Positions 12,435 through 32,806 are shown, counted from the stretch's first letter. The stretch is 64,000 nucleotides of DNA from Candidatus Krumholzibacteriota bacterium (GCA_963727455.1 CAVSGG010000017.1:32001-96000); one strand, 5' to 3'. The notes: generated from the letters alone by a model not told the origin. Translations and numbers: made by a program.

Positions 12435-12456
12435 CGCGCGGTACTTTCCGTGGTGC

Positions 12457-13545
12457 TCAGCCCAGCCAGCCCTTCCTCTTGAAGTACAGAAGGAGGACGA
12501 TGGCAACCGCGATCATCAGGCCCCAGGCAAAGGGGTAGCCGAAGTACCAGTTCAGCTCCGGCATGTTCCAGGGGGATTTCTCAGGGTTGAAGTTCATGCC
12601 ATACAGCCCCGCGATGAAGGAGAGCGGGATGAACAGGGTCGCAATGATGGTCAGCACCTTCATGATCTCGTTCATGCGATTGCTCACGATGCTGAGGTAG
12701 AGGTCCATCAATCCGGAGCTGACGTCGCGATACGATTCGACGATGTCCATCAGCCGCAGGGCGTGGTCGTGACAGTCCCTCAGATAGACCTGCGTCGTCT
12801 CATCGATGAGACCGCTCTCGTCCCGTGCCAGTGAGCTCATCAATTCGCGTAGGGGCCAGATGTAGCGCCTCAGAGTGGCGAGGTCACGCTTGACCTGGTG
12901 GAGACTTCTGATCGTTTCTTGGTTCTGGTGATCCAGAACATCCGCCTCCAGATCTTCCAACTGATCTCCGTAGTACTCCAACAAGGGAAAGTACGCGTCG
13001 ACGATGGCGTCGAGAATGGCGTAGGCCAGATAGCCTGCCGATCCTTCGCGAATCCTGGGGCGGCCTTCGCGAAGACGCGCGCGGACCGGTTCGAGGCAGT
13101 CGCCGATCTGCTCCTGGAAAGTGAGCACGATTCCCGGACCCAAAAGCAGACTGAACTGCTCGGTCTCGAGCGTGTCGCTCGACCTCGGCATACGAAGCAC
13201 CACAAAGCGAAGATCCCCGTACTCATCCACCTTGGGCCTCTGGTTGACGTGCACGATGTCTTCGACCGCCAAAAGGTGCAGGCCGAAGGCCTTGGCCACC
13301 TCTTGAATGACATTTTCATTGCCCAGGCCGTCCACGTTGACCCAGGTCACCGCGCGTTCGCGGACTCGCGAGCGTAATGACGACAGATTGGTGATGTCCT
13401 CCTCGACGAGTTCCTGCTCGTTGTAGGAGGTGAGATGCACCTTGCTGGGCGCGGCTTCGGGATCTGAAAAAATCGTGCCGGGAGAGGCCCCGACGGGGGC
13501 ACGCCGCTTGGCGGGGTTCTTACGCTTCTTGGAGTGCTTCCTCAT
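12457..13545 (-). CDS. corA: Magnesium/cobalt transporter CorA
   Basis: YGMNF motif, MPEL, two C-terminal TMs, QRPKVDEY. Confidence 0.95.
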   Translation of the reverse strand: MRKHSKKRKNPAKRRAPVGASPGTIFSDPEAAPSKVHLTSYNEQELVEEDITNLSSLRSRVRERAVTWVNVDGLGNENVIQEVAKAFGLHLLAVEDIVHVNQRPKVDEYGDLRFVVLRMPRSSDTLETEQFSLLLGPGIVLTFQEQIGDCLEPVRARLREGRPRIREGSAGYLAYAILDAIVDAYFPLLEYYGDQLEDLEADVLDHQNQETIRSLHQVKRDLATLRRYIWPLRELMSSLARDESGLIDETTQVYLRDCHDHALRLMDIVESYRDVSSGLMDLYLSIVSNRMNEIMKVLTIIATLFIPLSFIAGLYGMNFNPEKSPWNMPELNWYFGYPFAWGLMIAVAIVLLLYFKRKGWLG

Positions 13546-13974
13546 TGCGGGCTCCTCACGGGGATGGATCGTAAACGCGCGCAATCACGGTGTTGGGCAC
13601 GGATGGGGAGCGGAGGCGATCATATCAGAATCAATCCGTTAGGAAAGGCCGAGCTATTTTTCACAAAGTAGGGGGGATTCCGTGTGGGTTCTCGTCCTCA
13701 ATAGAGAGTCCGCTACTCAGTCGGTGCTGGTCCCGACCAGCCGAAAGAGTTGGGCTCCTGGGGTTGGGGCTGACCGCGCGAGGAAAGGGAGCCTCCTCGT
13801 CGGGAATGCCCCTCCCCACTCGTGCTTCCCGCGGAACGACAAACTCCCGTACTGGCAGGGTCACTGGACAGTGTGCCACGAGACACGATATTATCTATAA
13901 GTCCGCAATATTTTCATAGTGATTCACTGATTGAAAGTGATCTCGCTTTGAGGAGACTCTCCATACTTGGCTCA

Positions 13975-15294
13975 TTGCCTTCCCGGCAGATTCGGCGCCG
14001 CGCCGGACTGCTCGTTCTCTCTACTTGTCTGTTCTGCGCCTTCACGAGCACATCCCGTGCTGAAGTCTCACCGGATATGGCCGAGCATATGATCATCTGT
14101 CCGGCCGAGTTTGCACCCCAATTCGAGGTCCTTGCGACTCACCGTACTGTCGTCGCAGATTTGCCGAGCTGTGTGGTGACTCTCGAGGATGTCCTGAGCA
14201 GCGCGCCCCAAGGGCGCGACGATGCGGAGACTCTGCGCAACTACCTCATTCAACAGCACGATCTGGGTCATCTCCAGTACGTTCTCTTGGGAGGGGACAG
14301 CAGCGTCATGCCGGTGCGGTTTGCGAGGAGCACGTTCTATCCGCAAGGAGGATTCTCGGACATTCCATCCGATCTTTATTTCGCCTGTTTGAACGGAGAC
14401 TGGGATGCCGATGGAGACTCCATCTTCGGTGAGGCCTATCTTGCATACGATGATCCGGGTGATGATGTGGATCTCGATCCCGAGCTTGCAGTGGGACGCG
14501 CGCCCGTGAATACGGTTGTCCAGGCAGAGCGGTTTGTACAGGGCATCCTCGCGTACGATACACTGAATCCAGCTCCACATCTCGCGTCCGCCACGATGCT
14601 CGCGGAGGTACTCTTCCCCAGCGATTGGGACGGCACAGCAGCAATTAATCTCGACGGTGCATCCTATGGCGAGCACTTTGCGGCCGCGCTGGGTACGCAT
14701 CCCTTCCCTCCGATGGTTGCTCGGGTCTACGAGAACTGGTTGGCCTATCCCGGCTCCACGAGACTAACCGTGAGTTCGGCCCTCGACGTTCTCAGTTCGG
14801 GCAACCAGGGTCTTCTGTGCTTCATTGGCCACGGAACTGCCGACGACTTCTCTGTAGGCGACGGCAGTATCACTCTCGCTCAACTCGACGCTCTGGCCAA
14901 CGCGCCGGACTACTTCCTCACCCTCGCCTTTTCGAGTAGCGCGGCGGCATTCACCCGGGATTGCGTGCTGGGGCATCTGGTAACCGCTCCTGCGGGAGGA
15001 AGCGCCGGCGCACTGGGATTCACGAGCGAGGTATTTCCCAGCACTGGCGATGACTACTTCGATGAATTTCTTGAAAACCTCAGCGCAAGTTCTGGCGTGC
15101 TCTTGGGAGATGCCATGAAGGCCGTCCTCAAGAGCTATGTGCCAGGCTTCCCCTCAGAGACTCTCCAGCGTTGGGCGAGCTTTGGTTGGTGCCTCCTGGG
15201 AGACCCCGCGACCCCGTTCCGCACCGAGTTGAACCCCATATCGACTCAGAATTCGAGCCTGGGTGGCTTGAAAGCGCGGTTCGGGCGACACTAG
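13975..15294 (+). CDS. Secreted C25 (gingipain) family peptidase homolog; catalytic Cys apparently replaced; ends in SLGGLKARF tail
   Basis: YVLLGGD, PSDLYF, VGRAPV, FIGHG, LLGDP motifs; signal peptide if started at TTG 13975 (start uncertain, ORF open from 13822). Confidence 0.85.
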   Translation: MPSRQIRRRAGLLVLSTCLFCAFTSTSRAEVSPDMAEHMIICPAEFAPQFEVLATHRTVVADLPSCVVTLEDVLSSAPQGRDDAETLRNYLIQQHDLGHLQYVLLGGDSSVMPVRFARSTFYPQGGFSDIPSDLYFACLNGDWDADGDSIFGEAYLAYDDPGDDVDLDPELAVGRAPVNTVVQAERFVQGILAYDTLNPAPHLASATMLAEVLFPSDWDGTAAINLDGASYGEHFAAALGTHPFPPMVARVYENWLAYPGSTRLTVSSALDVLSSGNQGLLCFIGHGTADDFSVGDGSITLAQLDALANAPDYFLTLAFSSSAAAFTRDCVLGHLVTAPAGGSAGALGFTSEVFPSTGDDYFDEFLENLSASSGVLLGDAMKAVLKSYVPGFPSETLQRWASFGWCLLGDPATPFRTELNPISTQNSSLGGLKARFGRH

Positions 15295-15394
15295 GGCTGA
15301 GCAAATCCCCTTGGAGGCGCGAGGGTTGCCCCTTTTGCTCGATTTGCGGTAGACTTGGCAGGGCTCCTTCCACTCGCCAGATAGGAGGCGCGCC

Positions 15395-16954
15395 GTGTTC
15401 CCCCGACGCCGTATTGGGTGCATCCTTCTTCTATTCACGTTGATCGCGGCACTTAACTTCTCTGCTCACGCCGCGACGCTTCTTGTTCCTGAAGATTTCA
15501 CATTCGAAACTGCTCTGAACAGCACCACTCCCGGAGATACCATTTCCGTCGCGGGGGGCACTCTCGAACACGGTTACGGGAAACTCCCACCAGGCATCGT
15601 TCTTCTCTCGCGCGAATCGCAGGGAAACACCCTGGTACAGTTGCTTGCCTGGGATCTATCCGAACCCTCTGTAGTGAAGGGCTTTCGCTTCGGATCGTCT
15701 GATTACTGGTATTACGACTGGAATCATATATCGCCGAGCTGGCTTGGCGTCATCGTTGACAATTCTCAAGTTTCGTTCGTCGACTGTCGTTTCATCGAGT
15801 TGGGATCGGGGTCCGGTTTCTTTCCCGATGAGGAATATCCGGGAGCTCAATACCAGCGTTACCCGCTCAATTTCGTGAATAAATCCGTGGTGAGTTTGAA
15901 TTCGTGCGTTCTCGCAGGCAACTTCATGGACGTGGACAGTATTCCCACCATGCCGCGCGGGATCAACTGTCACGACTCTTCGCTGGAAATCCGGAAATGC
16001 ATCATTGAGCAACAAGCTTTCGCCATTCGCGCAGACGGTCCTTTGACCATCACCGATAGTACTTTCCGCAATTCTCACGGTTACGTTCTGCAGTCCTTTG
16101 GCTCCCTTTGGATGTTGGGAAACCTGATTGTGGATTGTGGTCCCGAGTACTGGGTTGATCGCTACTTGTCGACGACGAAAGTGGCCTATTGCCGCACATT
16201 CGAAGGGATTCATCTGGCAGGATCGGTCCATCTTTACCGCAATACTTTTGTCGATAATCCAGTCTTGATAACCTCCGATTACAACATCTATTGCGAAGCA
16301 CCTGAACCAGACGCGCGGATGGCATTGGTCACGATCGAGTCGGGCGCCCAGGGTTGGATCGAGCGCAACCTCTTCATTGGATTGACGGGTCCCGCGGTCC
16401 AAGCTCCGGCCTCGATCGAGGTCTCGTGCAACGATGCTTGGGACGGCCTGGGGCAGTACTGGAGGGGCGGGATCGGCGACGTGACCGGAACAAACGGCAA
16501 CATTTCCGAGGCGCCCATGTTCTGCGGACGCAGCGAGGGGGATTATACCCTCAGCATTTATTCCCCGGCGGCCACCGCCGAATGTGGATCGATGGGGGCG
16601 TTTCCCACCGCCTGCGACACGAAGCTGGAGATTCCCGACGATGGCGGGCCCGGGCCCCAGGGGCAACCGGCGAAGCTGCAGACGCGCCTGCTCGGGGCCG
16701 CACCCAATCCCTTCAACCCGCGTACCGAGATCCGCTTCGAGCTGGAGCACGTGGGAGACGTACGGCTCGAGATCTTCGACGTCGCGGGCCGGCTGGTGCG
16801 CAGCTGGAGTCTGCCGCAGCTCGCCGCTGGACCGCATTCGATCCCCTGGGACGGCCACGATGCCCACGGCAATGCGGTCTCCAGCGGGGTGTACTATCTC
16901 CGATTGCAGTATGCGGGGAAAGTGCTCAGCGACCGCATGGCGCTGTTGCGCTGA
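15395..16954 (+). CDS. Secreted parallel beta-helix repeat protein with FlgD-Ig / T9SS type A-like C-terminal domain
   Basis: Signal peptide; PGDTI; beta-helix-like repeats; GNISEAPMFC...DYTL...SPA...MGA; PNPFNP...IFDVAGRLVR...WDG...SGVYY. Confidence 0.82.
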   Translation: MFPRRRIGCILLLFTLIAALNFSAHAATLLVPEDFTFETALNSTTPGDTISVAGGTLEHGYGKLPPGIVLLSRESQGNTLVQLLAWDLSEPSVVKGFRFGSSDYWYYDWNHISPSWLGVIVDNSQVSFVDCRFIELGSGSGFFPDEEYPGAQYQRYPLNFVNKSVVSLNSCVLAGNFMDVDSIPTMPRGINCHDSSLEIRKCIIEQQAFAIRADGPLTITDSTFRNSHGYVLQSFGSLWMLGNLIVDCGPEYWVDRYLSTTKVAYCRTFEGIHLAGSVHLYRNTFVDNPVLITSDYNIYCEAPEPDARMALVTIESGAQGWIERNLFIGLTGPAVQAPASIEVSCNDAWDGLGQYWRGGIGDVTGTNGNISEAPMFCGRSEGDYTLSIYSPAATAECGSMGAFPTACDTKLEIPDDGGPGPQGQPAKLQTRLLGAAPNPFNPRTEIRFELEHVGDVRLEIFDVAGRLVRSWSLPQLAAGPHSIPWDGHDAHGNAVSSGVYYLRLQYAGKVLSDRMALLR

Positions 16955-16969: not shown

Positions 16970-18634
16970 TCAGTTCTGCTGGGCCTTGTGGACTGCGGTG
17001 CGTAGCAATTGCGCCCAGCTGTCGTCAGGCGCGAATTCCTCGTAGCGTTGTAGGAGTTGCTCCGCATCCTTGACTTTTCCCAGTGCCAAGCTCACCTGAA
17101 TCTGGTCATACAGCGCCCGCAGATAATTCGGGGTCGAGCTCTCGACGCGGGTCAGCAGCGCATCGGCTTGCTCGAGCAGCTTGCGGCGCTCGCTCTCCGA
17201 GACCGATTTCAGGGAACGCTGGTACTCCACGATGGCCAGACCGATGAGCGCTTCGGAATTGAGAGGGTCGTGTCGAAGTGCGGTTTGGTAGCTCTCTTCG
17301 GCCAGTATCAATTTCCCCCGGGCGAGCTTCAGATGGGCGAGAGCATTGCTTGTGCCGACCGGATCGATGCCCTTGCTCCGCTGGAGAATGAGCGTTTCCT
17401 CGGCCGCGACCATCTGGGACTCGCTGGAGGCTTCTTGGCTCCCGCGCAAGATTCCGGGATCCTCCGCGGAGAAATCCTGTGCGAGCCGGAGGGGCGCAGC
17501 GATACCGCTGGGATATCGTAGATGAAGTTCTCGGGCCGCCGGAGACTGCTTTCCTCCCAGAAGTGATCCCAAAGGAAGTCGGGAACGCACGAGGGGAGAG
17601 ACCAGCACCACGAGCGCCGCCGCGCACGCCACCAGAGTTTGGACGGCCTGGCGCCGGGGCCAGCGTGGGAAGGGGACGATTCGCGAGGAGTCTCGCTTCC
17701 TGGCTCGCTCAAGGATGGCTGCGTAGTACTCCGGAATGTCCTCCTGGCGGAGGTGCGCCCATTGCTGGGAATCCAGAGGGGCATCCAGGATGGAGACGAC
17801 TTTCGCCAGTTCACGGCGGGCCTCATCGTCGCGGCTCAGCAACTCCATGCGACGTGCAGTAGTCGTCTCGTCCAGCTCTCCCAAGACGAAGTCCAGAATC
17901 TCCTCGGAATCACGCCATCCCTCCCCTGTGGGACCATCGGGTTCGGGGTGGCCATCGTCGACCGAACGGGAACGAGCGCCGGGTCCTCCGAAATTCTGCC
18001 GGAGGATCTTGCGACCCCGCTCGATCACCTTCTCCACGCCGCCCCGGCTCAAGCCGAAGCTCTCGATCGAGGCAATGCGCGCAGCGGATAGTCCATCCAT
18101 GAGAGCCATGTTGCAGATGATGATATCGCGCTCGCAGGTGGGACGATTCTCCCAGTACTTTCGCAGAACGGGCGTGATGCGCTCTTGGATTTGTTTGATC
18201 TCGATTTCTACATCGATGGGCATGCCGCCGTCCCGCGCCTGTGCGATGAGCTGATCATGCGTCTCCTCATCCAAGGCCGCATACTTGGGGCGTCTTTGCG
18301 CGCCGTCCCGTTTCAGCTTGTCCCGAACCACGTTCGAAGCGGTCTTCCGTAAGTACATGTGAAACTCGCCTTCGCTGCGATCAGGATAACTACGGAGGTG
18401 TTTTCGGCCGTTTCCACAGAGTTTGGCCCAGCTGTCCTGACACGCATCTTCCACATCATCGTGGCTGAAGCGGCCGGGCACCTGCACCTGAAACATCCTC
18501 ACCACTGCCTGCCGAACCACTGAATCGAAGCGGCGGATCAATTCCGACCAGGCCCGATCGTCGTCGCTCGTCGCACAGAGTGCGTACACAACCGAAAACG
18601 GGGTGTCCTTTCCGCAATTCACGCTGGCTCCCAC
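16970..18634 (-). CDS. ECF sigma factor fused to an anti-sigma-like domain, TM helix and TPR domain
   Basis: Sigma2 (AWSELIRRF...VEDACQDSWAKL...YLRKTASNVVRD), sigma4 (DGLSAARIA...GVEKVIERGRKIL), EEILDFVLGELD...ARRELA, TM LVACAAALVVLV, TPR (NALAHLKLARG...YQTALRHDP...EALIGLA); start may be GTG 18622. Confidence 0.82.
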   Translation of the reverse strand: MGASVNCGKDTPFSVVYALCATSDDDRAWSELIRRFDSVVRQAVVRMFQVQVPGRFSHDDVEDACQDSWAKLCGNGRKHLRSYPDRSEGEFHMYLRKTASNVVRDKLKRDGAQRRPKYAALDEETHDQLIAQARDGGMPIDVEIEIKQIQERITPVLRKYWENRPTCERDIIICNMALMDGLSAARIASIESFGLSRGGVEKVIERGRKILRQNFGGPGARSRSVDDGHPEPDGPTGEGWRDSEEILDFVLGELDETTTARRMELLSRDDEARRELAKVVSILDAPLDSQQWAHLRQEDIPEYYAAILERARKRDSSRIVPFPRWPRRQAVQTLVACAAALVVLVSPLVRSRLPLGSLLGGKQSPAARELHLRYPSGIAAPLRLAQDFSAEDPGILRGSQEASSESQMVAAEETLILQRSKGIDPVGTSNALAHLKLARGKLILAEESYQTALRHDPLNSEALIGLAIVEYQRSLKSVSESERRKLLEQADALLTRVESSTPNYLRALYDQIQVSLALGKVKDAEQLLQRYEEFAPDDSWAQLLRTAVHKAQQN

Positions 18635-18761
18635 CAGAAAGACGAATTTCTTCGATTCCGGACGAAACCAGTGTGCTGGCTGCCTTCGGGGGCGTCAAGC
18701 CGCGCCCCCATCATTGCCTCTACACTCAAGACGAAAAAGCGTGGATACTTCCTAGTGGGAT

Positions 18762-21700
18762 TTGCGAATTCTCAAACTCCGGTGGGAACCGACATTGAGC
18801 AAAGCCGAGAAGCTGAGCAGTCGGGCTGCGCCCTCCTCTGCGGGGCGGCCCCTCTTGGCGTTGATCTGCGCCCTCTTGGCCCTTTTCGCGGGAGCTGCCG
18901 CGCACGGGGAGGAGCTCGCTCGCTTCACCCCTCTCTTACCTCCGGAGTCCCTGGCCAAGAGCTCCTGGATCGCCTCCAGTCCCGAACAGGCGGAAGGGGA
19001 GCTGGACGAGCTCACCGCCCGCACCGCCACTCAGCCCCAGCGACTGGAAAACTGGACCCACGCGACCATTCTGCAGTTGATTCTGCGTCGCCCCTTGGCG
19101 GCGCTGCGAACTCTGAAGCGGGCACAGAACTTCTCCTGGTCCCCCGAGGGGAAGCTGCAACTGGATTTCCTGGAAGCCGCGGCACAACTCGCGGTGGAGC
19201 CTCTGGAAATCGATGCCTTGGTGGGAGAGGATCACCTGGCCCGGGCCCGCGAGATTTTCCAGGAGCTGAAAAGACACCCTGAAACGGAGCTGCCTGCGAG
19301 CTTCGGGCTCGCCTGGATCGCATGCGAGATGGGCCACCCTGCGGCGGCACAGGAACTTCTCGACTCCACACGCGAACTTCCACTACAGGCCAGACAGCGA
19401 CTCTGGGAAGCCATGGTCCGCGCCTGTGGATCCACCATGGACAGCTGGCTACCGCATTTCAAGCGCGCGCTCGAGCAGAACGACCGTGCTCGACTCTCCG
19501 CCGCCGCTCGCCTGGCGCCCGGTCCCTTGCTCCTCCACTTGCAGCAAGCTCTCGACGATCCGATCGAGGAGGGGCTTGCGCTGGGCAAGGGGGGGAAAGC
19601 GGTAGATTTCTCCGCGGTCGACTCCCTTCTGAATCGAGTGAAGGAACCATTTCCCGGCGCCTATGCCGGCGTGCGCAAGCGCATGAGGAGTATCAGGGAG
19701 CTCGATCGGCAGGAAGGATCCCTTGCCCTGAGACTGGTGAAGGAGCTGCATCGTTTCGATAGCACATTCGGAAATCTGGATCTCCCCTGGGAGGAGCGCT
19801 GCCAGAGGGCCGTCCAAGTCTCGACGGGCAAGGCCGACACCTGCGAGGCCATGGGTCTCTGGTACCTCGCGGGGCGCTGGCACTGGGGTCGCGGCTACGC
19901 GCAAGCGCAGCTCGGGCATCCTCTGCAGCAATTGAGCGAGTACGAAGCCGCGCTCGAAGCGGCCAAGAAGCTGGATGATGCAGCCTATCTCTCCAAGACC
20001 GCGTTCAACCTCTTCATGGTGTGCGACGAGACCGCGAAGCAGGCGCAGCGCTTGGAGCTGCTACCCATGTTGGTGGAGCTTGCCGAGAGGACGGGAGTTT
20101 CGGTCGCGGAAGTTCTGATTGCAGAAGGCCGGGCCTACGAAGACCTCGGTGATCTGAAGAGGGCCTGGCGGCTCACGACCCACGCCTACCGTGAGAGCCG
20201 GCGTCGCGGCGCTCCCTACACTTCGATCAGCGCGCTTTCCAATTTGGCGTGGTTGGCGTTCCGTCAGAGCGAGAATCAGAAGGTGCAGCGTTACGCGCGT
20301 GAAATCCTCATGAGGACAGAGCCGGAGAATCTCCCCAAGAATCTTCCATCGTATAGAGAGACTATTTCCGCGATGCGGACCTGGGCCATGTTGGACCTGG
20401 GCCGGGCTCTGCCTTCGAATGATCCCCAGCGGCTGAAGTGGTACGAGAAGGCCGAAAAATCGGCGCGAGGTCAGGAACAGTACGCTCAGCTTCTTCATAT
20501 CCGCCTGGCTCGGGCTGAGGAGTTCTTGGCCGAGACGGATCTCGATGCCGCGCGGAAGTCGCTTCGCTCTGCCCGTACGCTCGCCCGCAAGAACGACTAT
20601 CGGTACGGTCTTTGGCGAATCGATGCTCTCCAGGCGCGTTACGAGAGTTTGCAGGGCGATTATTCCGCGGCGGCGCGCAGCTACGAGGCCGCCCTTTCGG
20701 GTCTGGAGGGAATCAGCGAACACATCAACGACGCCGAGCATCGCGCGAGTTTTCTCTTACCGGCCTCCGAAGTTTTCGAGGAGACAATCTCGCTCTTGCG
20801 AGGCCCGCTCCACGAACCTGGCGCGGCATACGCGGTCGACGAGCGCGCGCGGGCTCGGGCCCTCCTGCAGAAAGTCAGCGGGCGTGTCAACGGTTCCGAG
20901 CTTCGCAGCGCCGCGGAGGTGCAATCCAGCCTGAAGCACGACCAGGTTCTCCTTCAGTATCGCGTCCACGGGAAGGGCATCGATCTGTGGATACTCTGCT
21001 CCACGCAGCTCCGCTTCGTGGAAATCACCCAGAACGCCGATGAACTCGCGCAAAAAATCTCCCAGTGGCGTGAGGGTATCGAACGAGGTCTGCGGACCGA
21101 GCTGGGGGCACAGCTCGGTTCCCTCCTTCTGGGTCCGGCGGCCGGCGAACTGGCAGCTTGTGAGCACTTGATCATCGTCGCCAACGCACCATTGAGCCGC
21201 GTACCCTTCGCGCTCTTGAAACTGGATGGGCAGTACTTGCTTCAGCGCCACGCCGTTTCCTACGAACTCAGCGGCAGTATTCGCTGCGCCTTGCGAAACA
21301 GAAGGGCGCTTCAAGGAGACGAGAGGCTGCTCGCGGTGGGCTACGATGGGGGCAGCGCGGCGCGAAGTCTGCGACTGCCGGAGCTGCCCTTTGCGGAAGC
21401 CGAGGCCAGGATGGTGGAGGTGACCGCGCCTGCCGGACGACTTCTCTTGGGAAGGAGCGCCACGGCGGACAGCGTCGCCGCCCTGCTTCCCGGCGTGGGA
21501 GTTCTCCATCTGGCGACTCACGCCGGTCTCGACGAGTTCGGCGAGCCCTTCATCTTGCTGGCGCCGCAAGGGGGCGGCGCCGGTCTGATGCGCGAAGAGC
21601 AACTTTCGGCGTGGCCGTTGACGGACGTCTCTCTGGTTACCCTGGCTGGCTGTGAGACCGCGCAGCTCGGCTCCACGGAAGTGCAGGGCGATCTCTCTTC

Positions 21701-21923
21701 GTTGGGAGCCTCTATCTTCGCAGGGGGAAGTCGGGATCTAATTGCGTCTTTATGGAGTGTGGGGGACGACTCGACCATGAAACTGATGGTATCGTTCTAT
21801 CATGAACTTTTCGAGTCGCGCCGTCCTCCCGTGCAGGCGCTCCGCCACGCTCAATTGGAATTGGCACGGACCAATGGGACTCTCGAACGTGAATGGGGTG
21901 CGTTCTGCTTGTTCGGCCCATGA
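18762..21923 (+). CDS. TPR-CHAT domain (caspase-like, clan CD) protease with N-terminal signal/anchor
   Basis: ERARARALL, LSRVPFALL, LPFAEAEA, VLHLATH (His), LVTLAGCET (Cys), IASLWSVGD, ALRHAQL, WGAF; long helical TPR region; start may be TTG 18795. Confidence 0.92.
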   Translation: MRILKLRWEPTLSKAEKLSSRAAPSSAGRPLLALICALLALFAGAAAHGEELARFTPLLPPESLAKSSWIASSPEQAEGELDELTARTATQPQRLENWTHATILQLILRRPLAALRTLKRAQNFSWSPEGKLQLDFLEAAAQLAVEPLEIDALVGEDHLARAREIFQELKRHPETELPASFGLAWIACEMGHPAAAQELLDSTRELPLQARQRLWEAMVRACGSTMDSWLPHFKRALEQNDRARLSAAARLAPGPLLLHLQQALDDPIEEGLALGKGGKAVDFSAVDSLLNRVKEPFPGAYAGVRKRMRSIRELDRQEGSLALRLVKELHRFDSTFGNLDLPWEERCQRAVQVSTGKADTCEAMGLWYLAGRWHWGRGYAQAQLGHPLQQLSEYEAALEAAKKLDDAAYLSKTAFNLFMVCDETAKQAQRLELLPMLVELAERTGVSVAEVLIAEGRAYEDLGDLKRAWRLTTHAYRESRRRGAPYTSISALSNLAWLAFRQSENQKVQRYAREILMRTEPENLPKNLPSYRETISAMRTWAMLDLGRALPSNDPQRLKWYEKAEKSARGQEQYAQLLHIRLARAEEFLAETDLDAARKSLRSARTLARKNDYRYGLWRIDALQARYESLQGDYSAAARSYEAALSGLEGISEHINDAEHRASFLLPASEVFEETISLLRGPLHEPGAAYAVDERARARALLQKVSGRVNGSELRSAAEVQSSLKHDQVLLQYRVHGKGIDLWILCSTQLRFVEITQNADELAQKISQWREGIERGLRTELGAQLGSLLLGPAAGELAACEHLIIVANAPLSRVPFALLKLDGQYLLQRHAVSYELSGSIRCALRNRRALQGDERLLAVGYDGGSAARSLRLPELPFAEAEARMVEVTAPAGRLLLGRSATADSVAALLPGVGVLHLATHAGLDEFGEPFILLAPQGGGAGLMREEQLSAWPLTDVSLVTLAGCETAQLGSTEVQGDLSSLGASIFAGGSRDLIASLWSVGDDSTMKLMVSFYHELFESRRPPVQALRHAQLELARTNGTLEREWGAFCLFGP

Positions 21924-21946
21924 TTTCTCGTTTCAGGAGGTGCCTG

Positions 21947-22612
21947 GTGAGTCATTTCAAAGTCAGCAATCCAAGTCGCAAGAATCCTCAGATAGATGAC
22001 GCCATCCAAGGTGCCAGTCTCTCGGTTCGAAGCGGCAAAATGTCCTTCATCCAATACGGTTTTCTTCAAGATCCTGGTCCGGAAGTAGAGGGCCATTTTG
22101 ACCCAAAGCGAGTGGTCCTCCTCGTATTGAATGATTCCAAGAATGTTCAATACGAAATCGAGGGCGCCGAGAGTACGCGCGCATTAGGCCCTCACGGGGA
22201 AGACCATGTCATCATTCTGTGGCCAAAGAGCATGGAAGGGCCGCCTCCCAAAGCGCTCTCACCGAAGCATCTTTTCGGGTATCACCTGGAAGACGCCCGA
22301 AAAACGGGCCCGAGGGATTGGCCGCGTGAGTCGTTCAGGGGGAAAGACGGCCAAGGCCAGTGGAATTCAGCTTTGGTCTACTACGATCCCTCGGGAAGCT
22401 ACGGCTACTACTACAATACGGGGCCGGGAAAATGCACCGATGACTACCGCTTCGTACTCAAGTCCGAGGAACTCATTGCTTGGGTGTGGGAGAGCGAGGC
22501 GGACGAGCCAAGGCATCTGCTCGAGGACGGAGAGACCGTCAAGAACGCCCTAGAAGCGCAAGCCGGTGGTTCCCAGGGCGAGGGAGGAGCGCTGCCCTAT
22601 CCTCCGGGCTAG
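21947..22612 (+). CDS. Hypothetical protein in the CHAT operon
   Basis: AGGAGG then GTG at 21947; fills the gap between CHAT and S8 genes; no recognisable motif. Confidence 0.7.
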   Translation: MSHFKVSNPSRKNPQIDDAIQGASLSVRSGKMSFIQYGFLQDPGPEVEGHFDPKRVVLLVLNDSKNVQYEIEGAESTRALGPHGEDHVIILWPKSMEGPPPKALSPKHLFGYHLEDARKTGPRDWPRESFRGKDGQGQWNSALVYYDPSGSYGYYYNTGPGKCTDDYRFVLKSEELIAWVWESEADEPRHLLEDGETVKNALEAQAGGSQGEGGALPYPPG

Positions 22613-22621
22613 GAATGAGCC

Positions 22622-24007
22622 GTGTCTCTGTACTCGTCTGACGGCAAGGCGGCGTTGCTGGTCCAGGGAGCTTGGCCCTCGCCGGTGACGCTGCCTCTTC
22701 TTGCCTCTGCGGACCAACGGAATGCACTCTGGGTTCAGAGTGAGGAACTCAGCGCACGCATTGAAGGCGAGTTTCCCGAGGTGCAAGTCCTGGGCGCCTG
22801 TACTCTCGCACCCCTTCTCTTGCTGCGTTGCGACGAAGAACAATGCGCGGGCATCCTCGAGGAACTCTCGCGCTGGCCACAGATCGAACGAGCGGAGGAG
22901 ACGCTTCCCGAAGAGGAAGGCGCGCTCCTTCAGCCTGTGAAGATCCCCGTCCTCGAGGAGGCGAAGGCCTGCATTGCCGGCTTTGCCGAGCTAGGCAATC
23001 CGCTCCTCGTGGAACTCGTATCCAACAAAGGCTGGGAGAGACTTCGAGACGCTCTTCGCCGAGCTCCTGGCAGCGATGGTCCTGAAAGCTCGCATGCGGA
23101 TTCCGTCCTGGCTGCCTTCCTCGAGACCCTGGGGCCAGAGCGCACCCCCCGATGCATTTTCGAGAGTCTGGGGCGTGGCGCGGGCCCCTTTGCATGGCTG
23201 GCGGCGATCGATCGACTCCTCTGTCGAGGGGCGAGCGTGATCAACTTGAGCTACGGCCGCTTGCCGATCGAACGCGAATTGGGCTGGAACGGATTGGAAT
23301 GGGGTACCCAGCTCCTCTGTCAGGGGAGTGGCCGGACAATCGTGGCAGCTGCGGGACGGGTCAACGAAGGCCTCAGCCTGGGAGATGCGCTGTACCTCCC
23401 GGCCTCTGTGCCGCAGGTGTTGGCCGCCGCCGATGAGCTGCGAGTGCAAGCCACCGGCTCAGAGCGGGAGGCCACAAAAGTTCTTCTAGCGTCGCAGTGC
23501 AATCCGCTCGAGGGCCGCTGGGGCTCCTCCTTCTCTGCTCCGCGGATCAGTGGACTGGCGGTGCGGGCCTACGATGATCTGCCGCGCGAGGCAAGGAAGC
23601 ACGAATCGGTTCTTTCCCTCCTTCTGGCCTCGGCCAGACCGTCCGGAACGTCGAGCCCCGGCTTTCCCGACTCGAAGCGGCTGTCCCAGATGATAGCGCG
23701 GGAAGACTATCGTCGTGGTCGGAACGAAGAACGAGCTGTGCTCCCGATCACTTCGGGCTTGCCGTTACGGCTCGCTCTCAGTTGGAGAGACAGCGATCTC
23801 GACCCGGATCTTTCCGTCTCCGCGGATCGAGACCAATCGCTTCTCCGACGGACCGGACAGTGGATGGTGATGGATTACCTCCCGACCAGCTCCAGAATCG
23901 AACTACGGGGTTTGTCAGGCCCTTGGTCCCTCGCCTGGCACCCCCTGAGCCCGGAGGAGTTCGCGATCTCGAAAGATGGATTGGGAAGCGTTGGAAAAGA
24001 GGCCTGA
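22622..24007 (+). CDS. Divergent S8 (subtilisin-like) serine peptidase homolog
   Basis: HADSV (His), VINLSYG, IVAAAG, YLPASVPQVLA, GSSFSAPRISGLA (Ser); propeptide-like N-terminus; PLRLALSWRD C-terminal beta domain. Confidence 0.78.
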   Translation: MSLYSSDGKAALLVQGAWPSPVTLPLLASADQRNALWVQSEELSARIEGEFPEVQVLGACTLAPLLLLRCDEEQCAGILEELSRWPQIERAEETLPEEEGALLQPVKIPVLEEAKACIAGFAELGNPLLVELVSNKGWERLRDALRRAPGSDGPESSHADSVLAAFLETLGPERTPRCIFESLGRGAGPFAWLAAIDRLLCRGASVINLSYGRLPIERELGWNGLEWGTQLLCQGSGRTIVAAAGRVNEGLSLGDALYLPASVPQVLAAADELRVQATGSEREATKVLLASQCNPLEGRWGSSFSAPRISGLAVRAYDDLPREARKHESVLSLLLASARPSGTSSPGFPDSKRLSQMIAREDYRRGRNEERAVLPITSGLPLRLALSWRDSDLDPDLSVSADRDQSLLRRTGQWMVMDYLPTSSRIELRGLSGPWSLAWHPLSPEEFAISKDGLGSVGKEA

Positions 24008-24106
24008 ATCGCCTCCAGCGAATCTCTTTCCCGCGTCCTGCAATCTGGACTTTTCTCACCGGCCAAAGCGCATCATATTCACCTGAGCCTAAAGCAGGGA
24101 GTCATC

Positions 24107-25129
24107 ATGGTGCGCAAGCCGGTTGTTCTGATAACGGGAGCCAACGGGGAGATCGGTCACGGACTGATCGAGAGAATGGCCGCAGACGGGAAGAAGGACG
24201 TCCTTGCGATCGATCTTCTGCCCCTCGATGACACTCTGCGTTCCTATTGCCACGATGCATTTGTGGGCAGCATCCTCGATTCCCATCTGAGTGAGCGCAT
24301 CGTCAGCCAATACGAAGTGGTGGAGATCTATCACCTGGCAGCCCTCCTCTCCACGCGAGCGGAGTTTACGCCGGAGACGGCACACCAGGTGAACGTCGAG
24401 GGCACCCTCGGGCTTCTCCAGCTCGCCCTGGAACAGTCGAGTTGGCGCGGGGAAGCGGTGAAGTTTCTCTTTCCCAGCTCCATCGCCGTCTATGGACTTC
24501 CGGACTCAAAGACCAAGAAGCGTGCGGGACGCGTGAAGGAGCACGAGTGGATCGCGCCGACCACCATGTATGGTTGTAACAAACTCTATTGCGAGGCCCT
24601 GGGCCGCTATTTTTCGCGCTACTACCGCCAGCTCGCTTCCGAGCCCGACCAACGCACCGTGGACTTTCGGAGCATTCGTTTCCCCGGACTCATTTCCGCA
24701 GTCACTCTGCCCAGCGGAGGAACCAGCGATTTTGCCCCGGAGATGCTCCACGCCGCCGCGAAGGGCGAACCCTACGCGTGCTTCGTGCGCGAAGATACGC
24801 AAATTCCCTTCATGGCCATGCCCGACGCGGTCGACGCCATCCTGAGCCTGACGGAGGCTCCGCGGGAGAGTCTGCGGCATTCGGTGTACAACATCGGCTC
24901 CTTCGCGCTCACGGCCGGCGAACTGGCCGCGACGGTGCGCAAGCACTACGCGGGCGCGGACATCAGCTTCGCCCCCGACCTGAAGCGACAGGGGATCGTG
25001 GATACCTGGCCCATGGACGTCAACGACGACGCGGCGCGCGAGGACTGGGGTTTCTCGCCCCGCTACGATCTCGATCGAGCGTTCACCGAATATCTCGTTC
25101 CCGCGATGCGCGAGCGCTACGCGGGCTGA
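24107..25129 (+). CDS. Extended SDR, L-threonine 3-dehydrogenase-like
   Basis: TGANGEIG, YHLAALLS, PSSIAVYG, YGCNK, GGTSD. Confidence 0.88.
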   Translation: MVRKPVVLITGANGEIGHGLIERMAADGKKDVLAIDLLPLDDTLRSYCHDAFVGSILDSHLSERIVSQYEVVEIYHLAALLSTRAEFTPETAHQVNVEGTLGLLQLALEQSSWRGEAVKFLFPSSIAVYGLPDSKTKKRAGRVKEHEWIAPTTMYGCNKLYCEALGRYFSRYYRQLASEPDQRTVDFRSIRFPGLISAVTLPSGGTSDFAPEMLHAAAKGEPYACFVREDTQIPFMAMPDAVDAILSLTEAPRESLRHSVYNIGSFALTAGELAATVRKHYAGADISFAPDLKRQGIVDTWPMDVNDDAAREDWGFSPRYDLDRAFTEYLVPAMRERYAG

Positions 25130-25242
25130 GATCCCAGCACGAGAACTCGAAACTGTCGCCCGGCCTTTCCGCTGCCTACTTTGGAGCGCGCGCGAGTGCG
25201 CCCCTTGAGCATCGTATTGGAAGATTCGCCAGGAGGAATGTG

Positions 25243-26715
25243 ATGAGTGTCTCGGTCTTCGAGAAACTAAAGCCCGCTCTCATTTGGAAACACTTCGAAG
25301 CTCTGACGAGCATTCGGCGCCCCTCCGGCGAAGAGGAGCAAGCGCAGGAATATGTACGGAATTGGGCCCGGGAACATGACTTCGCGCTGCAGGAAGATGC
25401 CACCGGCAATCTGGTGGTGAGGGTGCCGGCGAGCCCGGGCAAGGAGAAGGCCCCGGTGGTGATCATCCAGGGTCATCTCGACATGGTCTGCGAGCGAAAT
25501 TCGGACAGCCCCTACGATTCCTTCGCGGGCAAGCTCCATCTCTTGCGCGAGGACGACTGGATCACGGCGGACGGCACCACACTGGGCGCCGACAACGGTA
25601 TCGGTGTTTGTGCGGGGATGGCAGTGGCGGAGGACCCCGCGGTCGAGCACGGTCCGCTCGAATTGCTGTACACCATCGACGAAGAGACGGGAATGACGGG
25701 CGCGCGGGGACTCTCGACCGAGATTTTGAGCGGTAAGCTGATGCTCAACCTGGATTCGGAAGACGACGACCTGATCTTCGTGGGTTGCTCGGGCGGGAAG
25801 GACACGCAGTATCGTTTGCCCATTACCCGCGAAAAAGTGCCCGCAGGACAGCTGGCAAGAAAGCTGAGCATCGCCGGGCTCAACGGCGGGCACTCCGGCT
25901 TGGATATCAACCGCAATCGCCTGAATGCGATCAAGGCCCTCGTCCAAATCCTCCACGAAAGTAGCAAGAGCGCAGCGTTCGAGTTAATACACATCGAAGG
26001 CGGTAAGATGCGCAACGCCATACCACGCGAAGCGCATGCCCTCCTCGCGCTGGATGCAGCGCAGGAAAATTCCCTGCGGCAAGCGGTGGAGACGGCGGCC
26101 ACTGAGCTGCGCGGGCAGTACGAGAAACTCGAGCCCGGCTTCGGCGTGCAGTTGGAGATGGTGGGCGAAGAGCTTCTTCAAGAGGGAGTCCTCCCGCGTG
26201 AGCTGAAGGAGCGCTTGCTCGCATTTCTTTTGGCGATTCCTAGCGGGGTGGTGGCGATGAGCCAGGACATCGAGGGTTTGGTCGAAACCTCCACCAACCT
26301 GGGAGTGCTGAAGACCGGCGCGAAGGCAGTGGAGGCCGTATCCTGCTCGCGCTCCTCGGTGGCGCCCGCACTGAAGACGGTGCTCGGACAATTGGCCGCC
26401 ATCGCGCGCCTGGCTGGCGTGGAAATCGAGGAAGTCGGCGGCTATCCGGGATGGAAGCCGGACATGGATTCCGTCGCCCTGAAGACGGTGAAAGAGAGCT
26501 ATCAGAAGCTCTTCGGAGAGGCCCCCCAAGTCACTGCCATCCACGCGGGGCTGGAATGTGGACTCATCGGTGAGCACCTACCCGGGATCGACATGGTCTC
26601 CTTCGGTCCCTCGATCCAGGGGGCCCACTCGCCCAACGAGCGGGTGAGCATCGCCTCGGTCCAGAAGTTCTACCGGCTGTTGAGCGAAGCGCTGAAGGAA
26701 TTGGCCAAGAGCTGA
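25243..26715 (+). CDS. pepD: Aminoacyl-histidine dipeptidase (M20)
   Basis: QGHLDMV, TTLGADNGIG, DEETG, NLDSED, GGHSG, IHAGLECG, AHSPNE; AGGAGG RBS. Confidence 0.93.
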   Translation: MSVSVFEKLKPALIWKHFEALTSIRRPSGEEEQAQEYVRNWAREHDFALQEDATGNLVVRVPASPGKEKAPVVIIQGHLDMVCERNSDSPYDSFAGKLHLLREDDWITADGTTLGADNGIGVCAGMAVAEDPAVEHGPLELLYTIDEETGMTGARGLSTEILSGKLMLNLDSEDDDLIFVGCSGGKDTQYRLPITREKVPAGQLARKLSIAGLNGGHSGLDINRNRLNAIKALVQILHESSKSAAFELIHIEGGKMRNAIPREAHALLALDAAQENSLRQAVETAATELRGQYEKLEPGFGVQLEMVGEELLQEGVLPRELKERLLAFLLAIPSGVVAMSQDIEGLVETSTNLGVLKTGAKAVEAVSCSRSSVAPALKTVLGQLAAIARLAGVEIEEVGGYPGWKPDMDSVALKTVKESYQKLFGEAPQVTAIHAGLECGLIGEHLPGIDMVSFGPSIQGAHSPNERVSIASVQKFYRLLSEALKELAKS

Positions 26716-26794: not shown

Positions 26795-27217
26795 ATGCCC
26801 CGACCGCAGTCACCCCGCCGCATTTCTGAGGAACTGGCCGCCACGGTTTTCAAGCCGCGCGGGGTGCCGGTGGGGGAGCTGGAGACCCTCGAGCTCACTC
26901 TCGATGGACTCGAGGCGCTGCGCTTGGCCGATTTGGAAGGCCTCTATCAGGAGGAAGCGGCCCGGCGCATGGGGATTTCCCGCCCGACCTTCGCCCGTAT
27001 CGTGGCCGAGGCACGGCAGATCGTGGCCAGAGCTCTGCTGGAAGGCAAGGCCCTGACCGTACAGGGGGGGACGGTAGAGCGGGGCGCGCAGAAGGCGTGG
27101 CCCTGTCCCGTCCACGGACAAAGGCGACGGCGCGGACGCGGTTGCCGTTGCGAAGCGTTGCAATCTGGAGGCAAGAGACATGGAGACAAGTCGGCGGACG
27201 GTGGCGATCGCCAGTAA
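26795..27217 (+). CDS. DUF134 (UPF0251) HTH DNA-binding protein
   Basis: MPRP...FKPRG...EALRLADLEGLYQEEAARRMGISRPTF. Confidence 0.92.
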   Translation: MPRPQSPRRISEELAATVFKPRGVPVGELETLELTLDGLEALRLADLEGLYQEEAARRMGISRPTFARIVAEARQIVARALLEGKALTVQGGTVERGAQKAWPCPVHGQRRRRGRGCRCEALQSGGKRHGDKSADGGDRQ

Positions 27218-27566
27218 CGGCACCTTGGGACTCAAGGGCAGCGTCAGTCAGCACTTTGGTCACTGCCGCAGTTGGGTGTTCGTGGATCTCGAGGGAGACG
27301 AGATTCTCGAGGTGCGGACTCTCGCGAACCCTTTCGAGTACGAACACAGCTGTGCGGAGGTGGCGGAGTTTTTGTCCGAACAGGGAGCGAATGTAGTCTT
27401 GGCCGGAGGGCTCGGGCGCAACGCGCACGGCCATCTCCTGAGTCTTGGAATCGAGGCAGTGTCCGGATTCGGTGGTGGAGTAGAGGAGTGCTTGGGGTCG
27501 TGGTTGAGGGGAGAGACGCCGGGACCAGCCGTGTGTGAACATCACGGGCAAGGCGACCACCACTGA
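27180..27566 (+). CDS. NifB/NifX (dinitrogenase FeMo-cofactor) family small protein
   Basis: VSQHFGHC, ANVVLAGGLG, His/Cys-rich tail. Confidence 0.88.
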   Translation: METSRRTVAIASNGTLGLKGSVSQHFGHCRSWVFVDLEGDEILEVRTLANPFEYEHSCAEVAEFLSEQGANVVLAGGLGRNAHGHLLSLGIEAVSGFGGGVEECLGSWLRGETPGPAVCEHHGQGDHH

Positions 27567-27579
27567 TGCTGCTGGAAGC

Positions 27580-28068
27580 TCATATGCGCTGATAGCTCCA
27601 GGAGAGTGGTTCGTCGTTTTCGTAGGGCATGTAGCCGTGGAAGCAACGCGGATCGTCGTCGAAGACCAGCGGCAAGAAATAGCGATCGCCTTTCCACATG
27701 GGCAGACTATCCAGCTCGCCCAGCTCGTACCAGGCCAGCGTGCCTTCGGCATTCTCTTGAAAGGGAGTGCCTTCGAATTCCTCGATCAAGAAGATGAAGC
27801 CGAGCCAGTCCTCGCCATTGGGACCAAATCCGGTCCAGTTGACGGTGCCCCGTAGCCGCATCTTCCGTACCTGCAAGCTGGTCTCTTCCACGATCTCTCG
27901 CCGCATGCAGCTCACCACGTCTTCGGTGGGAAGCATCTTCCCCCCGACCCCGTTGAATTTGCCGAGCTGGTCGTCGTCGGCCCGGAAAGAGCGGTGGACC
28001 AGAAGAGTTTTGCTGCGATCGGGCGAGAGAATGTAAGCCAGAGTGCCGACGATGGGGGTGTAATGCAT
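27580..28068 (-). CDS. NUDIX hydrolase (8-oxo-dGTP diphosphatase-like)
   Basis: NGVGGK...REIVEET Nudix box, EGTLAW, MWKGD. Confidence 0.9.
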   Translation of the reverse strand: MHYTPIVGTLAYILSPDRSKTLLVHRSFRADDDQLGKFNGVGGKMLPTEDVVSCMRREIVEETSLQVRKMRLRGTVNWTGFGPNGEDWLGFIFLIEEFEGTPFQENAEGTLAWYELGELDSLPMWKGDRYFLPLVFDDDPRCFHGYMPYENDEPLSWSYQRI

Positions 28069-28205
28069 GGAGCTCCTTCCCGAGGCAAGCACGATGCAAC
28101 CATTCGTTGGATTCGTGCGTCTTGCCATAGTAACGTGTACTGACTCCTTGATCATCGATTTTCCGCGCCCGCCCGCGGCGGCTCGCGGCTCCAGTGGAGG
28201 ATCCC

Positions 28206-32776: not shown

Positions 32777-32806
32777 CCCCCAGGCCTTCCGGCTAAGGAA
32801 CCCTCG

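Follow-up and report, generated by a model that had tools for sequence, protein, structure and literature searches.

A membrane-tethered sigma fusion facing a CHAT protease operon in Krumholzibacteria, a candidate envelope-to-transcription switch

The window analyzed here, a stretch of 64,000 nucleotides (nt) from a Candidatus Krumholzibacteriota bacterium (contig C17:32001-96000; genome G000, assembled to 3.46 Mb in 18 contigs with a completeness of 89%), encompasses at positions 16970-24007 four genes that we tentatively interpret as an envelope-to-transcription switch. On the minus strand lies a gene for a fusion protein that joins a sigma domain of the extracytoplasmic function (ECF) type to an anti-sigma-like segment, a single membrane helix and a tetratricopeptide repeat (TPR) domain. 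Divergently from it, on the plus strand, three genes encode a TPR-like/CHAT protease with a predicted export signal, an orphan protein and a divergent protease of the S8 (subtilase-like) family. Judging from the sequences and their conservation, it is possible, if somewhat short of probable, that the fused sigma is freed by regulated intramembrane proteolysis, with the CHAT protein making the site-1 cut in trans. Among known systems, the nearest is DdvA/DdvS of Myxococcus, not the type III-E Craspase on which a preliminary description of this DNA had modeled the locus.

The four genes travel together. A profile of the sigma fusion retrieves it from 7 of 121 genomes of the class, all within one Krumholzibacteria family and three of its genera, and it was not detected in the other 114 class genomes searched (all genomes compared are metagenome-assembled). 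It is present in the window's own genome and in the four others of the same genus, in the one genome compared from each of two further genera, and in none of three from a fourth. The CHAT, orphan and S8 genes stand beside it in the same order and orientation in all seven, down to identities, in the other two genera, of 33% for the sigma fusion, 28% for CHAT, 22-26% for the orphan and 28-29% for S8. Strong S8-like matches (E<=2e-43) come from the same 7 of the 121 genomes, three more giving generic S8 matches at E ~1e-6 in much longer proteins; a single-protein search with the orphan finds it in 6 of 41 relatives, and tblastn recovers it in the seventh genome. On either side lie housekeeping genes (acyl-CoA dehydrogenase, CorA, epimerase, M20 peptidase) that differ between genera, and in the fourth genus, which lacks the cassette and in which an empty site was sought, the epimerase lies in another neighborhood. 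The conserved unit is exactly these four genes and not a chance neighborhood. The preliminary description had staked its proposal on co-occurrence of the genes elsewhere, and on this point it is borne out.

The outer coordinates it had given for the four genes likewise match real open reading frames, which in their longest form run from 16970 to 18634 on the minus strand (554 aa) and, on the plus strand, from 18762 to 21923 (1053 aa), 21893 to 22612 and 22622 to 24007 (461 aa). Of the two narrow gaps that it reported in the operon, the 9 nt before the S8 gene are exact, and the 23 nt before the orphan hold if that gene starts at GTG 21947, the most likely start given that the homologs begin there with MSHFK or MSHLR. 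The divergent spacer measures 127-172 nt, depending on the choice of starts. For the sigma fusion, the longest frame opens at 18634, but a conserved GGGAG lies 6 nt upstream of GTG 18622 and the start codons of the orthologs agree with the latter, so that a product of 550 aa (16970..18622) is likely; the residue numbers used below are those of the 554-aa frame.

From the domain matches and an AlphaFold model, the fusion protein consists of ECF-type sigma-2 and sigma-4 regions, a linker, an anti-sigma segment, one membrane helix, a second linker and the TPR domain, in this order. The model, built on 7 sequences, has a mean predicted local distance difference test score (pLDDT) of 68 and a predicted template modeling score (pTM) of 0.35. 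It places the sigma-2 helices at residues 13-113 and sigma-4 at 140-215 (together 17990..18598, minus strand), disorder at 217-237, helices at 243-313, a long hydrophobic helix at 328-350, a further disordered stretch at 351-404 and the TPR at 405-553. The ECF sigma-70 model TIGR02937 aligns with residues 28-214 over nearly its whole length (positions 2-164 of 165; E 2.1e-8, 34.0 bits), and the Pfam family Sigma70_r2 matches all eight orthologs at E<=0.05, the best at 5.4e-5. When the whole model was compared with solved structures using Foldseek, TPR proteins alone were matched, with template modeling scores of up to 0.77 to the target, and the sigma part is accordingly unconfirmed by solved structures; a profile of the fusion searched against PDB sequences likewise recovered TPR proteins alone.

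The segment between sigma-4 and the membrane helix (residues 243-313; 17696..17908, minus strand) is modeled as helices with pLDDT of ~60-67. Its reading as an anti-sigma segment is best supported by an HxxxCxxC motif that is aligned at this place in two of the eight sequences, those of G005 and G006, which represent the two other genera. The zf-HC2 family matches the segment in one of the eight orthologs (E 0.0048), and the model NF010501, 'putative anti-sigmaE', matches the window's fusion at E 0.022. The membrane helix that follows (328-350; 17585..17653, minus strand) reaches a Kyte-Doolittle maximum of 2.29 over 19 residues, and one such segment is present in each of the six orthologs scanned; G006 has a second, weaker hydrophobic peak at residue 485. 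The TPR domain beyond it (405-553; 16976..17422, minus strand), predicted to be extracytoplasmic, is modeled with pLDDT of 72-94 and matches TPR_16 (E 1.9e-8) and TPR_19 (E 2e-7), both over their cut-offs, across residues 431-544.

Two short motifs in the linkers stand out. On the outer side of the membrane helix, in a linker predicted to be disordered (pLDDT <50 for residues 346-402), lies the juxtamembrane motif PLRLAQDFSAEDPGILR (17444..17494, minus strand). In its general form, PLRLxQ....E..G..R, eight positions (P, L, R, L, Q, E, G and R) do not vary among the eight sequences, which are otherwise 32-90% identical. The second motif, GGPGARSR (17966..17989, minus strand), forms a hinge between sigma-4 and the anti-sigma segment, within the disordered stretch 217-237 (pLDDT <50); GGPGARS is invariant in 8/8 sequences from three genera and occurs nowhere else in the genome when all six frames are translated. 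Motifs conserved in this way within predicted disordered linkers, beside two proteases, suggest recognition or cleavage sites, such that the PLRLxQ linker is a candidate for a site-1 (CHAT) site and the GGPGARS hinge for a cytoplasmic one.

The gene facing the fusion (18762..21923, plus strand) encodes 1053 aa from TTG 18762, with an alternative start at TTG 18795. Its CHAT domain (residues 780-1052) matches PF12770 at E 5.8e-43, with 147.8 bits against a cut-off of 24 and over model positions 2-288 of 289. The His-Cys dyad is intact, with His920 (21519-21521) in an HxAxHG motif and Cys964 (21651-21653) in LxxC; both motifs are invariant in the six aligned sequences and visible in the seventh (G006), in agreement with the earlier view of the domain as a clan CD-type protease. 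The first 700 residues give weak TPR matches, at E ~0.005 and below cut-off, and a profile of the protein finds a helical-repeat protein among solved structures at E 8e-5. We considered whether the TPR domain of the sigma fusion could be a piece of this repeat region and rejected the idea (BLASTP E 0.27; hhalign probability 11%).

The amino terminus of the CHAT protein carries a hydrophobic signal segment at about residues 31-49, and a positive stretch, a hydrophobic run and a small-residue site follow one another in all seven orthologs; one of these falls under the hydropathy threshold of 1.6 and yet has a clear MRWIRLLLLTLLCLV. We read this region as a Sec-type signal peptide or signal anchor, and export is predicted. 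The export signal is the central point absent from the preliminary description. Given a signal-like segment on CHAT in 7/7 orthologs and one membrane helix on the fusion in 6/6, the fusion's TPR domain and the entire CHAT protein are both predicted to lie outside, with the sigma and anti-sigma segments inside together with the orphan and the S8-like protein, neither of which has an N-terminal hydrophobic segment in any of the seven orthologs.

Under the mechanism that we tentatively favor, the sigma would be held inactive and membrane-bound by its own fused anti-sigma segment, membrane helix and small outward-facing TPR, and the TPR-like/CHAT protein would be exported to the same outer compartment as this TPR. 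A cue, probably a protein, would bind the helical-repeat region of the CHAT protein and activate the protease, which would then cut the sigma fusion in trans within the juxtamembrane PLRLxQ...E..G..R linker. An RseP-type site-2 protease would next cut the membrane helix, setting the sigma part free in the cytoplasm. The orphan and the S8-like protease would constitute a co-inherited cytoplasmic pair, either substrate and protease or regulator and protease, that completes the release, for example at the GGPGARS hinge, or represents the output of the operon, or both. The domain identities, topology signals, synteny, invariant motifs and RseP homolog are observed, and the cleavage events, the cue, the promoter assignments and the regulon are what we infer.

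This mechanism has a precedent. In Myxococcus xanthus, DdvA combines a zinc anti-sigma, one membrane helix and a periplasmic TPR-CHAT; removal of the TPR-CHAT exposes DdvA to RseP, and the authors propose that CHAT cuts the linker next to the membrane, adding that validation of this site-1 role must wait until the signal has been identified (PMC11506125). The locus described here shares with DdvA/DdvS the ECF sigma, the single membrane helix, a TPR and a CHAT domain predicted outside the cytoplasm, the latter with its His-Cys dyad, a putative anti-sigma segment of the class I or zinc-binding anti-sigma (ZAS) type, and the proposed order of a CHAT cut in the membrane-proximal linker followed by RseP. 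It differs in that sigma and anti-sigma form one chain and the TPR-CHAT is predicted to be exported as a protein of its own, so that cleavage would occur in trans; CHAT is encoded by a gene on the opposite strand, and the fusion ends in a 150-aa TPR without CHAT. The window's genus, moreover, has lost the zinc motif, the cassette contains the orphan and S8 in addition, and no CBASS (cyclic-oligonucleotide-based antiphage signaling system) or CRISPR genes are adjacent. The predicted extracytoplasmic TPR-CHAT with an intact dyad is a defining feature of DdvA-like proteins that is found here; nevertheless, because TPR-CHAT and anti-sigma are on separate polypeptides, the locus falls outside the DdvA-like anti-sigmas as defined in the accessible text, which reports such proteins from Myxococcota and one Comamonas alone (PMC11506125). 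Anti-sigma and TPR-CHAT form one chain in DdvA and are products of neighboring genes here, and the Rosetta-stone argument speaks for an action of the two products on each other.

Fusion of a sigma to its anti-sigma has precedents, too. IutY of Pseudomonas putida (ECF243) is a sigma/anti-sigma hybrid released by Prc and RseP, and members of ECF48, ECF52 and ECF53 are predicted hybrids released by proteolysis (PMC8999054). Like these, the fusion has an ECF sigma joined at its C-terminal side to an anti-sigma segment and a membrane helix. The known hybrids, in contrast, carry outer parts that are FecR-like or combine a zinc finger with carbohydrate-binding domains, lack dedicated CHAT, orphan and S8 neighbors, and come from Proteobacteria and Actinobacteria, not Krumholzibacteria. 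The locus appears, by analogy, to work like DdvA/DdvS combined with hybrids of the IutY or ECF52 kind. An association of ECF sigmas with subtilase and CHAT proteins is already in print for ECF54, with conserved carboxypeptidase, subtilase and CHAT-domain neighbors and a proposed control by proteolysis (PMC8999054, in the part available); this group is described, as far as the available text goes, without an anti-sigma and from Actinobacteria (PMC7826278), whereas here the anti-sigma segment is fused and the conserved unit lacks a carboxypeptidase. Our literature search found no report of the split arrangement, the linker motifs, the orphan family or a case from Krumholzibacteria; the supplements of PMC11506125 (table S7) and PMC7826278 may bear on this.

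The genome of the window also encodes an RseP-type M50 protease (227 bits) and a second locus of similar layout. On contig C3 (L028:5931-9739), another ECF sigma, unrelated to the fusion, is divergent from another TPR-CHAT gene. This second sigma (L028 6563-7186, minus strand) scores 52.6 bits with TIGR02937, over the curated cut-off, and is followed by a probable membrane anti-sigma (L028 5931-6566), recognized by eye and without a family match, whose start overlaps the sigma stop by 4 nt. The TPR-CHAT gene that faces them (L028 7271-9739) encodes a protein with a signal-like N-terminus. There is no orphan or S8 gene at this locus, downstream of which lie genes for a Peptidase_S74-domain protein and a Por_Secre_tail protein. 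The second sigma adjoins the CHAT ortholog in three of five loci of relatives (G003, G001 and G008); at the other two, both in G006, the 1.5 kb to either side of CHAT did not contain it. No sigma gene neighbors the third CHAT gene of G000. An unfused sigma/anti-sigma pair facing a TPR-CHAT suggests that, outside Myxococcota, CHAT proteins may have been overlooked as site-1 proteases that recur in ECF signaling. At the four-gene locus, the separation of protease and substrate makes the untested site-1 step of the DdvA model directly testable, the PLRLxQ linker being a concrete prediction; the host belongs to a candidate phylum without genetics.

Several observations count against the proposed release by CHAT. 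The sigma part scores under the curated cut-offs of the families that it matches (34.0 versus 42.9 bits for TIGR02937 and 14.1 versus 24 for PF04542), and by sequence it is best described as a sigma domain of ECF type that has diverged, without certified membership in the ECF (group 4) family. The HxxxCxxC motif is replaced in all six sequences of the window's genus, such that self-inhibition there is not certain. In G001, the sigma fusion (locus L008 3575-5234) is split between two reading frames that overlap near residue 395, in the outer linker; this may be an assembly error, or else a frameshifted gene and a sign that the tether is dispensable, and an intact 550-aa relative at 67% identity is found in metagenome data (P0013). 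Export of CHAT was judged by hydropathy and reading by eye, not by a trained predictor. Searched against solved chains, alone and as a profile (the latter at E<=1), the CHAT protein matches no CHAT protein, DdvA included, so that the likeness to DdvA is confined to domain family and architecture. The orphan and S8 genes are as conserved in position as CHAT, and yet the model gives them no necessary role, and the divergent arrangement would equally well fit an operon that is the regulon of the sigma. In favor stand the synteny in 7/7 genomes, the shared predicted compartment, the invariant CHAT dyad and linker, the fusion seen in DdvA, the second sigma/CHAT locus, the RseP homolog and the known hybrids, and on this evidence we lean, with reservations, toward CHAT as the protease that starts the release.

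The strongest competitor, which we consider unlikely though worth serious attention, is that the operon is the output of the system. The TPR of the fusion would sense a cue, general envelope proteases and RseP would free the sigma, and the sigma would transcribe the CHAT-orphan-S8 operon, the products of which, a caspase-like protease sent outside and an all-beta protein that undergoes processing, would be the response, for example, envelope remodeling, competition or positive feedback. ECF sigmas commonly control neighboring genes, an RseP homologue is present, and the intergenic spacer contains two blocks conserved in all five same-genus loci, each of which occurs once in the genome, as expected of a very small regulon. 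One of them, CCAGTnTGCT...CGTCAAG (18668..18699), can be read on the plus strand, toward the CHAT operon, as GTnTGC-N16-CGTC with an ECF-like -10 element; the other, GACGAnAA-N13-TCCTA (18730..18754, plus strand), lies just upstream of the CHAT gene. The first block, however, also reads as TTGACG-N17-CAnACT on the minus strand, toward the sigma gene, and a generic consensus scan found no sigma-70-type site. Read from sequence, the promoter assignments are ambiguous as to strand, and control may run in either direction. Casas-Pastor et al. remark that within a neighborhood it is difficult to distinguish regulators from targets (PMC7826278). An operon that is merely output, moreover, leaves unexplained both the fusion of anti-sigma and TPR-CHAT in DdvA (PMC11506125) and the second sigma/anti-sigma pair facing an exported TPR-CHAT. 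The two readings are compatible, and a feedback loop could combine them.

The orphan and S8 genes form a closely knit pair of their own. The orphan (21947..22612, plus strand; 221 aa from GTG 21947) is modeled from residue 6 to 221 as an all-beta domain (pLDDT 78.7, pTM 0.80) with a disordered C-terminal tail (pLDDT <50). This tail, GG.Q..GGALPYPP[GK] (22565-22609), shows the highest conservation within the family and in every member forms the end of the protein. No family match was found in Pfam, NCBIfam, PADLOC or PHROG. Foldseek searches of the model against PDB and BFVD gave nothing at E<=1e-3, the top rows being immunoglobulin-like or cupredoxin-like with template modeling scores <0.2, and a search of the ESM Atlas gave no usable match. 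The orphan profile finds 14 relatives among 1.84 billion representative proteins at E<=1e-3 (11 at E<=1e-10), so that the locus adds a very small family with a fold that has no match. The three weakest matches (E ~1e-5) are long PKD/MBG/SprB repeat proteins, which we set aside as chance or generic beta-repeat similarity. A metagenome scan for orphan contexts yielded five contigs of 1.5-4.6 kb, and a cluster look-up of six distant orphans yielded contigs of <=7 kb; the contexts of the most distant members are not covered.

The S8-like protease (22622..24007, plus strand) falls just under the PF00082 cut-off as a single sequence (21.1 versus 21.8 bits), and a profile of six orthologs matches PatA/PagA-type proteases in the PDB at 2.3e-15 and subtilisin BPN' at 2.4e-5. 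Ser303 (23528-23530) lies in a GSSFSAP motif, and this motif and that of His158 (23093-23095) are invariant in six of six sequences; the catalytic Asp place is held by Glu123 (22988-22990), the acid being Asp in four of seven orthologs and Glu in three, the window's among them. The solved-structure alignments shown cover the protein from residue ~177 on, and the roles of the acid and the His are those that we take them to have from the general motifs of S8 proteases. The oxyanion Asn of the 'AAGN' motif is Arg or Gln in the five same-genus sequences and Asn in G005 and G006. The protein further has a propeptide-like N-terminal region and an extra C-terminal domain; the former is absent in G006 (L037 13899-14978, 359 aa), and a different N-terminus is found in G002 (L009 6581-7768, 395 aa), so that the propeptide-like region is not a constant part of this protease.

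Its best solved relatives are the PatA/PagA cyanobactin leader proteases (4h6v, 3zxx, 3zxy, 4h6w). PatA-type enzymes are cytoplasmic and sequence-specific. Like them, the S8-like protein has no export signal and is encoded beside a small dedicated candidate substrate; here, in contrast, this neighbor is a folded protein of ~220 aa and not a short precursor peptide, there are no other peptide-maturation genes, the triad acid is Glu in three of seven sequences, and the oxyanion Asn is replaced in the window's genus. The nearest relatives, the lack of an export signal and the conserved tail of the orphan together fit a dedicated cytoplasmic pair of protease and substrate or of protease and regulator. 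The locus adds a subtilase of PatA-like kind, its acid position held by Glu, that is strictly coupled to the orphan family.

The pair also diverges differently from the rest of the cassette. Between G000 and its closest relative, G003, the orphan and S8 proteins are 60-61% identical, compared with 86-91% for sigma and CHAT, and nucleotide identity drops to 61-72% across 22060-24160, with 76-99% on either side. Divergence at four-fold silent sites in identical residues is 0.73 (33/71) for the orphan and 0.92 (95/179) for S8, against 0.38-0.49 for sigma, CHAT and M20 and 0.10-0.12 for three flanking genes, whereas the ratio of nonsynonymous to synonymous substitution rates (dN/dS) of 0.23-0.31 for the orphan and S8 indicates purifying selection. 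As far as this comparison, mainly of one genome pair, goes, the orphan/S8 segment looks like an older or exchanged allele and not like the result of a burst of positive selection.

Divergence from G003 is also mosaic outside the cassette, where 11667-13821 and 24460-25360 were compared with locus L007 of that genome. Nucleotide identity is 94-99% in the genes for acyl-CoA dehydrogenase, CorA and epimerase (silent divergence of 0.10-0.12) and 76-90% in most of the region. Such a mosaic suggests that the two lineages have recently recombined in the surroundings of the cassette.

The divergence of the pair is one reason to consider that the locus is a conflict system, anti-phage or inter-bacterial, a proposal that we regard as quite unlikely and that concerns biological role, not mechanism, and therefore overlaps the other readings. 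CHAT and the sigma fusion would detect an attack on the envelope, and the fast-diverging orphan and S8 would meet an evolving opponent or else act as a protease effector and its inhibitor. DdvA/DdvS does control a CBASS-CRISPR island that protects against phage (PMC11506125, available part), the contrast in identity between the two halves of the cassette is accompanied by raised silent divergence, and the distribution is patchy, with the cassette absent from three genomes that belong to the family's fourth genus. Against these points, PADLOC matches none of the four proteins or four neighbors, PHROG gives no match beyond a weak one to the sigma, the flanks are housekeeping genes, selection on the orphan and S8 is purifying overall and not positive, and the divergence contrast comes mainly from one genome pair.

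A more elaborate possibility, for which we would claim little probability, is a relay with two compartments and two dedicated proteases. CHAT would cut the PLRLxQ linker, RseP the membrane helix and S8 the GGPGARS hinge, this last cut parting the sigma from its fused anti-sigma, with the orphan tail serving S8 as a competing pseudo-substrate or a licensing element and the orphan/S8 genes being exchanged between lineages as a polymorphic cassette that faces an opponent such as phage. If true, such a relay would represent a novel type of envelope alarm, compact and independent of CRISPR, that employs no separate anti-sigma.

Craspase is cytoplasmic and RNA-guided. The preliminary description, which proposed protease-gated release of a tethered sigma, chose it as the model; the release remains the most economical reading of the locus, but the export signal on CHAT argues otherwise for the model. 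Type III-E loci (Cas7-11, Csx29, Csx30, RpoE) do resemble this one in combining genes for a TPR-CHAT, an ECF-type sigma and a small uncharacterized protein (PMC10028731), and the sigma part has a weak match to the type III-E sigma model (E 0.0035). That the TPR-CHAT cleaves the orphan as a counterpart of Csx30 and thereby frees a sigma held by it is nonetheless highly improbable, considering that CHAT carries an export signal in 7/7 orthologs and the orphan in 0/7, which places them in different predicted compartments; that the match to NF041236 (CAS_III-E_sigma) reaches 17.3 bits against a cut-off of 100, with ordinary ECF sigmas of the genome scoring higher; that the orphan has no NCBIfam match; that the 64-kb window contains no tandem array; that PADLOC matches none of the eight proteins tested (the four and four neighbors), not every ORF of the window having been scanned for cas genes; and that the sigma already has a tether of its own in the anti-sigma segment and membrane helix fused to it. 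The novelty that the preliminary description had assumed is lowered by DdvA, a transmembrane anti-sigma with a periplasmic TPR-CHAT (PMC11506125).

Beyond the 3' end of the sigma gene lie a gene for a Peptidase_C25 (gingipain-family) protein (13822-15294) and one ending in an FlgD_ig domain (15395-16954). The C25 gene is found in G001 and the FlgD_ig gene in G001 and G003 (60% identity); neither is present in G002, G004, G005 or G006, and the pair (13822-16954) is a variable insertion beside the conserved cassette. On the other side, a minus-strand ORF of 285 aa (26895-27752) has no Pfam match and is 72% identical to its counterpart in G003, 46% in G001 and ~32% in G002 and G004. Further along, 28194-35911 holds a gene for an HlyD-type membrane-fusion protein and after it two genes for large AcrB/RND transporters of 1141 and 1022 aa; this is an efflux operon of the usual kind and has no relation to the cassette.

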